Source: Thermodesulfobacteriota bacterium (GTDB taxonomy: Bacteria; Desulfobacterota_D; UBA1144; Nemesobacterales; Mycalebacteriaceae). From it: a stretch of DNA of 64,000 nt. Under the pieces are notes generated by a model. The model ran no database searches. It saw only the letters and a list, made by a program, of their open reading frames with translations, and had not been told where the DNA came from. The position numbers and the translations under genes are program-made. Shown in pieces: positions 50,858-52,262 of this stretch. The stretch is taken from positions 1,158,236 through 1,222,235 of the forward strand of contig OZ245366.1 in assembly GCA_965226585.1 (NCBI GenBank), read 5' to 3'. Numbering within the stretch: position 1 is the stretch's first letter; the number at the start of each line of letters is the position of its first letter.

Positions 50858-51128
50858 GAAGCAGGAATCCAGTATTGGTTAACCAGTTGAATACTGGATT
50901 CCGTGTCAAGCACGGAATGACGGGAAGGGGAAAAGGCACGGAATGACGGGAAGGGGAAAAGGCACGGAATGACGGGAGTGGAGAAGCGTCATTCCGTTGC
51001 CTCCTCTGTCATTCCTGCGAAAGCAGGAATCCAGTATTGGTTAGCCAGTTGAATACTGGATTCCGTGTCAAGCACGGAATGACGGAAGTGGAGAAACGTC
51101 ATTCCTGCGAAAGCAGGAATCCAGTATT
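50858..51128 (+). repeat. Repeat array left of the GIY-YIG gene: truncated unit 50858-50921, full unit 51008-51083, left arm 51098-51128
   Basis: Direct reading. Confidence 0.93.
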
Positions 51129-51480
51129 ATTTAACCCGATGGACAAAAATCCCGCAGTCTACATAATGGCGAGCAAGCGAAACGGAACACTTTACACAGG
51201 TGTAACCAGCAACCTGCCCGCCCGCGCTTGGGAGCATAAGAACAGCGCGACAGAAGGTTTTACAGACAAATACAGTGTCCACCTGCTTGTGTACTTTGAA
51301 GTGCACGAGGATATGAATTCAGCAATTGAACGCGAGAAGCAGATAAAGCAATGGAAACGCCAGTGGAAATTGGAACTTATAGAGAAAGACAACCCTGAAT
51401 GGAAAGATTTGTATGAGGATATTGTTTGAGTAGGGGTTTCGCCAGTTGAATACTGGATTCCGTGTCAAGCACGGAATGAC
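51098..51480 (+). mobile_element. Putative autonomous element: repeat left arm + GIY-YIG gene + repeat right arm
   Basis: Left arm GTCATTCCTGCGAAAGCAGGAATCCAGTATT-ATTTAACC precedes the ATG; right arm GCCAGTTGAATACTGGATTCCGTGTCAAGCACGGAATGAC follows the stop. Mobility is inferred, not shown. Confidence 0.55.
51139..51429 (+). CDS. Stand-alone GIY-YIG nuclease (96 aa)
   Basis: VYIMASKRNGTLYTGVT, R..EH, GFT..Y....LVYFE, AIEREKQIKQWKRQWKLELIEKDNPEWKDL. Start corrected to MDKNPAVY; the upstream ORF extension is translated repeat. Confidence 0.92.
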   Translation: MDKNPAVYIMASKRNGTLYTGVTSNLPARAWEHKNSATEGFTDKYSVHLLVYFEVHEDMNSAIEREKQIKQWKRQWKLELIEKDNPEWKDLYEDIV

Positions 51481-52262
51481 GGGAAGGAGAAAAGGCACGG
51501 AATGACGGGAGTGGAGAAACGTCATTCCGTTGCCTCCTCCGTCATTCCTGCGAAAGCAGGAATCCAGTATTAATTAGCCAGTTGAATACTGGATTCCGTG
51601 TCAGGCACGGAATGACGGGAAGGGGAAAAGGCACGGAATGACGGGAGTGGAGAAGCGTCATTCCGTTGCCTCCTCTGTCATTCCTGCGAAAGCAGGAATC
51701 CAGTATTAGTTAGCCAGTTGAATACTGGATTCCGTGTCAAGCACGGAATGACGGAAAGGGGAAAAGGCACGGAATGACGGGAGTGGAGAAACGTCATTCC
51801 GTTGCCTCCTCTGTCATTCCTGCGAAAGCAGGAATCCAGTATTAGTTAACCAGTTGAATACTGGATTCCGTGTCAAGCACGGAATGACGGGATGGGGAAA
51901 AAGGCACGGAATGACGGGAGTGGAGAAACGTCATTCCGTTGCCTCCCCCCGTCATTCCTGCGAAAGCAGGAATCCAGTATTAGTTAGCCAGTTGAATACT
52001 GGATTCCGTGTCAAGCACGGAATGACGGAAAGGGGAAAAGGCACGGAATGACGGGAAGGGGAAAAGGCACGGAATGACGGGAGTGGAGAAACGTCATTCC
52101 GTTGCCTCCCCCCGTCATTCCTGCGAAAGCAGGAATCCAGTATTAATTAACCAGTTGAATACTGGATTCCGTGTCAGGCACGGAATGACGGAAAAAAAAC
52201 AATCAACGGAATGACGGAATGGTGGAAAGCACGGAATGACGGAAGCGGCAGGTATCCAGTAT
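51441..52262 (+). repeat. Repeat array right of the GIY-YIG gene: right arm 51441-51480, five full units (51541, 51677, 51813, 51951, 52114), satellites
   Basis: Direct reading; period 136-163 bp with near-identical linkers. Confidence 0.95.

Follow-up and report, generated by a model that had tools for sequence, protein, structure and literature searches.

We analysed a 64,000-nt stretch of DNA (the window) from the genome of an uncultured Thermodesulfobacteriota bacterium (G000; a single contig of 1.48 Mb with 51.6% G+C), in which a small nuclease gene is embedded in an array of palindromic repeats. At 51097-51481 the two arms of a 76-bp repeat bracket a 96-aa open reading frame (ORF) for a single-domain GIY-YIG protein, P0001. 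We consider it likely, with a probability of roughly 0.85, that this locus is an SRM-ssn-SRM module, that is, a GIY-YIG gene between two convergent hairpins (with their CGTC tags outward) of the type recognised by its protein family. The pairing of such a gene with such hairpins is not new, as it has already been published as the Ssn system (Chenal et al., Nat Commun 2025;16:2388, PMC11893778). In that system, ssnA (cd10448) encodes a single-domain GIY-YIG protein of ~94 aa, and the Neisseria Transformation Sequence (NTS) or broader Ssn-related motifs (SRM) flank ssnA homologues across phyla. Literature searches returned no later paper on Ssn mobility.

A GIY-YIG gene between the arms of a 76-bp repeat

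The gene-bearing unit consists of the following parts:

51098-51128, plus strand: left arm GTCATTCCTGCGAAAGCAGGAATCCAGTATT, 31 nt, whose CGTC tag is completed by the C at 51097
51097-51128, plus strand: left-arm hairpin, forward Ssn type, CGTC-ATTCCTGC-GAAA-GCAGGAAT-CCAG-TATT (-7.8 kcal/mol, z -5.5)
51129-51138, plus strand: 5' internal spacer, ATTTAACC followed by cg (direct reading)
51139-51429, plus strand: ssn-like gene, 291 nt, encoding the 96-aa P0001 (ATG at 51139, TGA at 51427-51429)
51430-51448, plus strand: 3' internal spacer, gtaggggtttcg followed by CCAGTTG (51442-51448)
51449-51480, inverted: right arm AATACTGGATTCCGTGTCAAGCACGGAATGAC, 32 nt
51449-51481, minus strand: right-arm hairpin, second type, bottom strand CGTC-ATTCCGTG-CTTGA-CACGGAAT-CCAG-TATT (-7.8 kcal/mol, z -4.7)

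The preliminary description of this DNA, made from the letters alone, had placed the arms around the ORF at 51098-51480, which proved exact to the base, and had stated that joining the two CC dinucleotides regenerates the short repeat. Indeed, excising the stretch between them yields a regular 76-bp unit, with a junction ambiguity of 2 nt, and the CCAGTTG of the 3' spacer is common to every short unit. The further suggestion that the short unit is an internal deletion of the long one held in form; however, no intermediates were found, the ATTTAA hexamer of the 5' spacer is confined genome-wide to the two gene-bearing units and occurs in no short unit, and no ORF remnants were detected in the genome outside these two units. 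The deletion relation is therefore formal only.

The second nuclease gene encodes an identical protein and lies 124 kb away in the largest array of the genome (11 units). Comparison of the two gene loci shows a sharp boundary on the left: identity sets in precisely at the C of CGTC and extends past the right arm over one further satellite. Within this stretch the copies are set apart by a single synonymous change and one change in a loop; the flanks outside it differ.

P0001 matches the Pfam GIY-YIG family (PF01541) over residues 6-78 (E 7.8e-16) and carries no second domain. Residues Y8, Y19, R29, H33, E66 and N85 are invariant in an alignment of 20 homologues, and a constant offset of +2 suggests that Y8, Y19 and E66 correspond to Y6, Y17 and E64 of the Neisseria meningitidis (Nm) enzyme SsnA (NMB0047/NMV_0044), which are required for cleavage by the latter (PMC11893778). 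An AlphaFold2 model of P0001 was confident (pLDDT 88.5), and its top fold matches were UPF0213 BH0048 (1zg2), the UvrC N-terminal domain, Slx1 and I-TevI. A PHROGs match (0.0015) was to a family of unknown function, and look-ups for the exact 96-aa and 130-aa products found neither on record.

Comparison with the published Ssn system

The published work (PMC11893778) provides the features against which we compared this locus. The NTS, CGTCATTCCCGCGMAVGCGGGAATCYRG, contains dRS3, and a degenerate string for SRM was given as HGTCWYN(0-2)YYVSBRHN(0-5)WNVSBRGN(0-2)RNCYNB; at least one SRM was found at 71% of the homologues and SRM on both sides at 42%. SsnA binds the hairpin solely as single-stranded DNA (ssDNA) and cleaves a few nucleotides upstream of it (~3 nt 5' of CGTC). 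Mutagenesis showed that cleavage depends on the GTC in front of the palindrome and binding on the C that follows it, and that the identity of the loop is dispensable, while changing the palindrome abolished the activity of Nm SsnA even though the hairpin was kept; split half-sites still guided cleavage in vitro. The characterised enzymes come from Neisseria, N. elongata, N. wadsworthii and Wolbachia, and four homologues cut their own flanking hairpins. Furthermore, SsnA lowers transformation by NTS-bearing DNA, and the authors' Discussion describes NTS-ssnA-NTS as similar to an insertion sequence (IS), compares it with REP/RAYT (REP, repetitive extragenic palindrome) and offers domestication as a hypothesis.

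The left arm at our locus differs from the NTS consensus by two mismatches, which form one compensatory T:A pair, and keeps the GTC and the following C. In the right arm the CGTC tag, the outer stem (ATTCC/GGAAT) and the C after the palindrome are retained, but the inner stem and loop differ. Genome-wide, 73 sites lie within two mismatches of the NTS consensus and 137 within three. Shared with the Ssn/NTS-SRM system are thus a single-domain GIY-YIG protein of ~95 aa, a gene between inverted CGTC-tagged hairpins, hundreds of hairpins per genome beside surface-protein genes, and a wide, patchy phylogenetic distribution. Unlike in that system, the two arms here belong to different hairpin types, TGC-GAAA-GCA and GTG-CTTGA-CAC, and an additional 8-nt stem (CCAGTATT/AATACTGG) extends them, so that each doublet is an oriented three-hairpin cloverleaf. 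The present case also differs in having two identical gene copies, each within a long tandem array, in units that are translated inside genes as well, and in its host, a 1.48-Mb uncultured bacterium for which the nuclease activity is predicted.

Several points weigh against assigning the locus to this system. Its placement is based on size, domain, layout and repeat, with Nm SsnA and cd10448 compared only by their published description. P0001 had no sequence match in NCBIfam, PADLOC or among solved structures, and no obvious Shine-Dalgarno sequence or clear ribosome-binding site precedes the ssn-like ATG (51129-51138). Moreover, neither arm matches the SRM string, which has 7 matches in the genome versus 8.6 in shuffles, although our implementation of it recovers both the canonical NTS and the loci in the congener G001; the left arm escapes the string because of the compensatory change from a C:G to a T:A pair. 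Cutting of the right-arm (B) hairpin is uncertain, since its inner stem and loop differ and a changed palindrome abolishes the activity of Nm SsnA. Finally, the genome encodes ComEC and DprA, but both are so widespread that they are no proof of natural competence.

Many homologues of the nuclease are flanked by convergent hairpins

To score a homologue locus as hairpin-flanked, we required a GTC[AT]-tagged hairpin facing the gene at most 200 nt upstream and an inverted one at most 200 nt downstream. Convergent tagged hairpins were present on both sides at 57 of the 99 homologue loci, versus 2 of 79 control windows, and 87 of the 99 loci had at least one tagged hairpin. The controls were distal windows 800-1000 nt away; these replaced mismatched-flank controls, which carried no information, as even unrelated genomes share the hairpin. 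The homologues themselves are widespread, as a scan of one genome per species gave more than 597 relatives, the best 80 of which, at 55-70% identity, represent at least 16 phyla. At the same time, the distribution is patchy both within the order, where 20 of 41 genomes carry a homologue, and within the genus. Inverted hairpin arms 305-370 nt apart surround the gene at 9 of the first 16 loci of the same order, with stems that vary between genomes.

The preliminary description had also proposed to test whether arm sequence co-varies with the nuclease phylogeny. When the first 9 nt of the arm were mapped on the protein tree, 39 changes were needed compared to a mean of 46.8 after shuffling, and none of 1000 label shuffles reached 39; this support is modest because the protein tree is poorly resolved. 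Gene and ATTCC-type hairpin also co-occur among 41 related genomes (13/17 vs 7/24, Fisher p 0.004). In the congeners, hairpin counts range from 0 to 27, in contrast to the ~140 doublets of G000. G001, whose protein is 68% identical to P0001 and whose gene-flanking hairpins equal the NTS consensus exactly, has two ssn copies and ~15 hairpins, 14 of which lie beside these genes. In G005 there are 26 hairpins but no gene, while G002 combines 27 hairpins with a frameshifted remnant in place of an intact gene.

The two ssn copies of G001 lie 1269 bp apart (L003/L022, G001:C1:1388700-1390700), and the hairpins around the second are polar, with five forward NTS at a 110-bp period upstream and inverted NTS downstream; they are not doublets as in G000. 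In G002, a weak Ssn-like match extends over two overlapping frames (L135/L138, G002:C1:366647-366903). This split match is probably a decayed copy; none lies near it among the ATTCC-type hairpins listed for G002.

Two loci allowed a comparison of positions between these genomes. The ssn gene adjoins pgk in G001, and the pgk locus of G000 is repeat-free; the left neighbour of the G001 ssn has no homologue in G000, so that the empty site is undefined. The spacer between tRNA-Leu and tRNA-Lys (10496-10738) is 243 nt long in G000 and holds a doublet and four satellites, whereas it is 8 nt in G001 and 67-89 nt in G003-G005, all of which lack the unit. In G002 this spacer is ~1.2 kb of unrelated sequence (L130, G002:C4:10265-11457), read at its ends only. 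The spacer is a hot spot, and its versions are too diverged to fix the ends of an insertion.

The repeat family in the window and the genome

In the window, the 25-nt arm core occurs 16 times versus 0 in 100 shuffles. Each arm type has ~147 occurrences in the 1.48-Mb genome, and these form 137 complete doublets (hence ~140) in 60 clusters, with a 13-nt spacer (6 variable nucleotides plus CCAGTTG) in 120 of the 147 left-right arm pairings. As ssDNA, the 76-bp unit is predicted to fold into a three-hairpin cloverleaf (-21.3 kcal/mol, z -6.9) composed of hairpin A, the CCAGTATT/AATACTGG stem and hairpin B.

The clusters make up a few islands that coincide with 22 genes for autotransporter beta-domains, and 48 of the 147 units lie at most 400 nt from the stop codon of such a gene. 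Most gene-less doublets belong to tandem arrays, which border the genes of this autotransporter family or lie in frame within them. One example is the complete unit at 32735-32810, which together with C-rich satellites is translated in frame (…SRHSVPDTESSIQLANQYWIPASAGMTEGAGMTEG…) within the ORF 31240-34524 (minus strand, AT1). The unit lies in a Ser/Gly/Arg linker, which is short in the autotransporter paralogues at 43907-50770 and 52262-63562, and it resembles the insertions of Rickettsia palindromic elements (RPE). Nucleotide alignment of the AT1 unit with the paralogues covers just the downstream 46-58 nt and leaves the insertion borders undefined.

We detected no target-site duplication at 34 single copies, whose flanks are conserved fillers. 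Many of these 'single' copies were duplicated together with paralogous autotransporter segments, because long flanks are common to them.

The intergenic gap at 50771-52261 holds the whole array together with the nuclease gene. It is flanked by the start of a gene for a 2287-aa and the stop of a gene for a 3766-aa autotransporter-like protein, both on the minus strand and thus opposite to the nuclease gene on the plus strand. Besides the gene-bearing unit, we annotated the following features:

~50859-50921, plus strand: truncated unit lacking the first ~12 nt of the left arm, with spacer and right arm intact; left edge of the array (copy D4, 50845-50889, in the repeat list)
50910-50977, plus strand: 26-bp satellites GCACGGAATGACGGGAAGGGGAAAAG, 2.6 copies (Tandem Repeats Finder, 100% matches)
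51008-51083, plus strand: complete 76-bp doublet without a gene (forward hairpin A, spacer of 13 nt, inverted hairpin B)
51541-51616, 51677-51752, 51813-51888, 51951-52026 and 52114-52189, plus strand: five complete gene-less doublets with half-hairpin satellites between them
51441-52056, plus strand: 136-bp tandem array, 4.5 copies, 96% matches, followed by a 163-bp period up to 52242
52251-52278, plus strand: arm remnant GGTATCCAGTATTAAAACCTG... abutting the stop codon of the gene for the 3766-aa protein (inverted repeats I1/I2)
52262-63562, minus strand: gene for the 3766-aa autotransporter-like protein

The previously described arrangement of one full unit to the left of the gene and five to its right was thus recovered, with the truncated unit at ~50859-50921 in addition. 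Each 26-bp satellite joins a purine-rich filler to half a hairpin of the right-arm type, namely its 5' part as far as the loop (bottom strand CGTCATTCCGTGC). Such half-hairpin satellites are found at 50910-50977, 51469-51519 and 52015-52082, and opposed pairs of half-sites (GGCACGGAATGACG…CGTCATTCCGTTGCC) make additional hairpins with their tags at the loop side.

The junction between arm remnant and stop codon recurs at 31230-31245. At both places the autotransporter TAA stop falls inside the arm remnant (…CCAGTATTAAAACCTGTAATTAAC; minus-strand reading …VNYRF*), and the repeat arrays therefore begin at the stop codon itself. A match to a sigma-70-like promoter (11/12, TTGACA-16-TACAAT; 50804-50831, minus strand) lies between the array and the start of the gene for the 2287-aa protein.

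Three left-to-right arm spacings of 1417-1537 nt resembled further insertions within units; the one in the window, which we read, instead pairs the arm remnant at the stop codon with the next unit and spans the 3' part of the autotransporter gene. That no HUH transposase is present, as had been noted before, is true of the window. The genome has a single PF01797 match, a weak one (31 bits), in a Y1_Tnp-like gene 171 kb past the window (G000:C1:1393278-1394138). This gene has a 286-codon frame with an ATG 12 codons in, the HUH motif NHYHIV and a C-terminal tail resembling a helix-turn-helix. We rejected it as the transposase of the repeat, because no repeat core lies within 2.5 kb of it.

Proposed working of the module

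By analogy with the enzymes of Neisseria, N. elongata, N. wadsworthii and Wolbachia, P0001 would bind the CGTC-ATTCC...GGAAT-C hairpin only in ssDNA and would hydrolyse the bound strand ~3 nt 5' of CGTC, in the pyrimidine-rich filler just outside each doublet. Its targets would be the A-type and perhaps also the B-type hairpins, and we infer from its homologues that P0001 cuts these two variants. Its ssDNA-specific binding and cleavage, as well as any effect on transformation, are carried over from the homologues and hence putative here. The substrate may be incoming ssDNA, in line with the presence of ComEC and DprA genes, or ssDNA exposed by replication or recombination. Since the sites border autotransporter genes or lie in their linkers, strands would be trimmed at cassette borders; cutting may thereby trim or channel ssDNA at the edges of surface-protein genes, a role proposed for NTS clusters in Neisseria (PMC11893778), and may shape recombination in this mosaic autotransporter family. 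The gene-less doublets may descend from the module, and nick-provoked repair or slippage may build the arrays. Repeated nicking and repair at the fillers could give rise to both the half-hairpin satellites and array growth.

Relation to other repeat systems

REPs tagged with CGTC include dRS3 of Neisseria as well as RPE-4 and RPE-6 of Rickettsia (Di Nocera, De Gregorio and Rocco, BMC Genomics 2013;14:522, PMC3733652). Most of them occur as dimers, some are located within genes, and they 'apparently lack a dedicated transposase'; REPs downstream of genes are often transcribed (PMC3733652). The repeats described here share with them short CGTC-tagged palindromes, mostly in outward-tagged dimers, as well as clustering, occasional in-frame copies and no associated Y1 transposase. 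Unlike those REPs, for which no partner protein was known (PMC3733652), the partner here is a GIY-YIG gene between two repeats.

With the REPIN/RAYT systems (Bertels and Rainey 2011, PMC3116915; Nunvar et al. 2010) the family shares dispersed inverted-hairpin doublets, one or two nuclease gene copies flanked by the same repeats, and hairpins recognised as ssDNA. However, RAYTs are HUH/Y1 enzymes with a covalent 5'-phosphotyrosine intermediate, while the protein here is a hydrolytic GIY-YIG enzyme; the tag is CGTC rather than GTAG, and mobilisation is a hypothesis in our case. IS and miniature inverted-repeat transposable elements (MITEs) are comparable in that identical terminal inverted repeats bound both a long form with a gene and numerous short ones, each equal to the long form without its interior. 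Here, in contrast, the encoded protein has no catalytic domain of a transposase type, neither target-site duplications nor intermediates were found, and the short forms mostly stand in tandem arrays instead of being scattered one by one. Homing endonucleases of the I-TevI type, lastly, have a tethered DNA-binding domain and cut double-stranded DNA near their own insertion site, whereas P0001 is a single domain and the characterised Ssn relatives cut only ssDNA outside the hairpin.

Possible spread of the repeats by the nuclease

The preliminary description had proposed that the GIY-YIG protein mobilises or amplifies the repeats. That protein and repeat form one system is supported by the homologue flanks (57/99 vs 2/79) and by the published work (PMC11893778), whereas the evidence for active mobilisation is circumstantial, and we regard it as possible rather than probable. 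One version of this idea, which we consider doubtful, is that SRM-ssn-SRM modules are still-active prokaryotic mobile elements of a non-canonical class: the GIY-YIG enzyme would nick just outside the terminal hairpins, and the replication or repair machinery of the host would then carry copies of the module or of its gene-less doublets to new places. A related reading, compatible with the Ssn module and held tentatively, sees an autonomous element with MITE-like offspring, Ssn being to CGTC REPs what RAYT is to GTAG REPs/REPINs. It accounts for the two gene copies, which are identical from exactly the C of CGTC with differing outer flanks, and for the predicted cuts 3 nt 5' of CGTC, which would mark the two outer limits of the unit, each on a different strand. 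The non-orthologous positions of ssn (by pgk in G001, with a repeat-free pgk locus in G000), the doublet in the tRNA-Leu/tRNA-Lys spacer of G000 that the short spacers of four congeners lack (G002 being read at its ends only) and the in-frame unit in one autotransporter paralogue all point the same way. So do the patchy distribution within order (20/41) and genus of a gene with 55-70% identical homologues in at least 16 phyla, and the lack of another candidate transposase, both for CGTC REPs (PMC3733652) and here, where the Y1_Tnp gene is not near the repeats. The chemistry, however, speaks against it.

GIY-YIG enzymes hydrolyse DNA without a covalent intermediate, and to our knowledge no member has strand-transfer activity. 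Moreover, inverted hairpins would place the cuts on opposite strands, unlike the single-strand excision of IS200/IS605. Hairpin numbers do not track the gene either, with two genes but ~15 mostly local hairpins in G001 and 26 and 27 hairpins without an intact gene in G005 and G002, respectively. The lack of target-site duplications at the conserved filler flanks and of any ATTTAA-bearing short unit or ORF remnant likewise argue against an autonomous element, and most copies stand in tandem arrays, explicable by slippage or unequal crossing-over, while many 'single' ones were duplicated along with autotransporter segments.

Two other explanations separate the gene from the origin of its repeats. 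A selfish GIY-YIG gene might have entered the central spacer of one doublet and spread by cutting empty copies; GIY-YIG homing endonucleases are well known, and such an origin would explain why the gene interrupts one unit precisely at its spacer, with a 2-nt CC microhomology, in an array that is otherwise regular, as is the unit itself, and why each of two arrays has one occupied unit. We nevertheless consider this very unlikely, because the known cut is outside the hairpin and not in the CCAGTATT-N6-CCAGTTG-AATACTGG spacer that holds the gene; indeed, the characterised homologue cuts only ssDNA, ~45 nt from that spacer. In addition, P0001 has no separate DNA-binding domain of the I-TevI type, and just 2 of ~140 doublets are occupied. 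Since hairpins flank the gene in G001 even though no dispersed doublet family exists there, the gene appears to carry its arms rather than to find them.

It is even harder to credit that the gene is a mere passenger, inert on arrays that grow by slippage and whose function for the autotransporter genes is that of terminators, insulators, mRNA stabilisers or recombination junctions. Such a role would suit arrays that start at autotransporter stop codons and fill intergenic gaps, units with very stable folds, and the frequent transcription of REPs downstream of genes (PMC3733652). Yet 57 of the 99 homologue loci, which represent many phyla and unrelated gene surroundings, likewise have the gene between hairpins, arm sequence follows the nuclease tree, and four homologues cut their own flanking hairpins (PMC11893778). 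We therefore consider this explanation very unlikely.

Significance for the Ssn family

As it stands, the SRM-ssn-SRM locus of G000 is a well-resolved further example of the Ssn/hairpin pairing, in an uncultured small-genome lineage. It indicates that censuses based on the SRM string undercount Ssn-type repeats: G000 has ~300 hairpins and 7 string matches, which is chance level, and such genomes are missed because a single compensatory change from a C:G to a T:A pair escapes the string. The oriented pairs of two hairpin types also pose the question of whether one 96-aa enzyme reads both. Whether the nuclease spreads its repeats was raised in 2013 in the form of 'no dedicated transposase' and in 2025 as a hypothesis, and the contrast within the genus (~140 doublets with two genes, ~15 hairpins with two genes, 26-27 hairpins with no intact gene, and none) makes it testable. 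If true, nuclease-driven spread would be a hydrolase-driven route of transposition and thus new biology; Ssn would then be the 'missing transposase' of the CGTC-tagged REP superfamily (dRS3, RPE-4/6), for which G000 would offer a natural test case.

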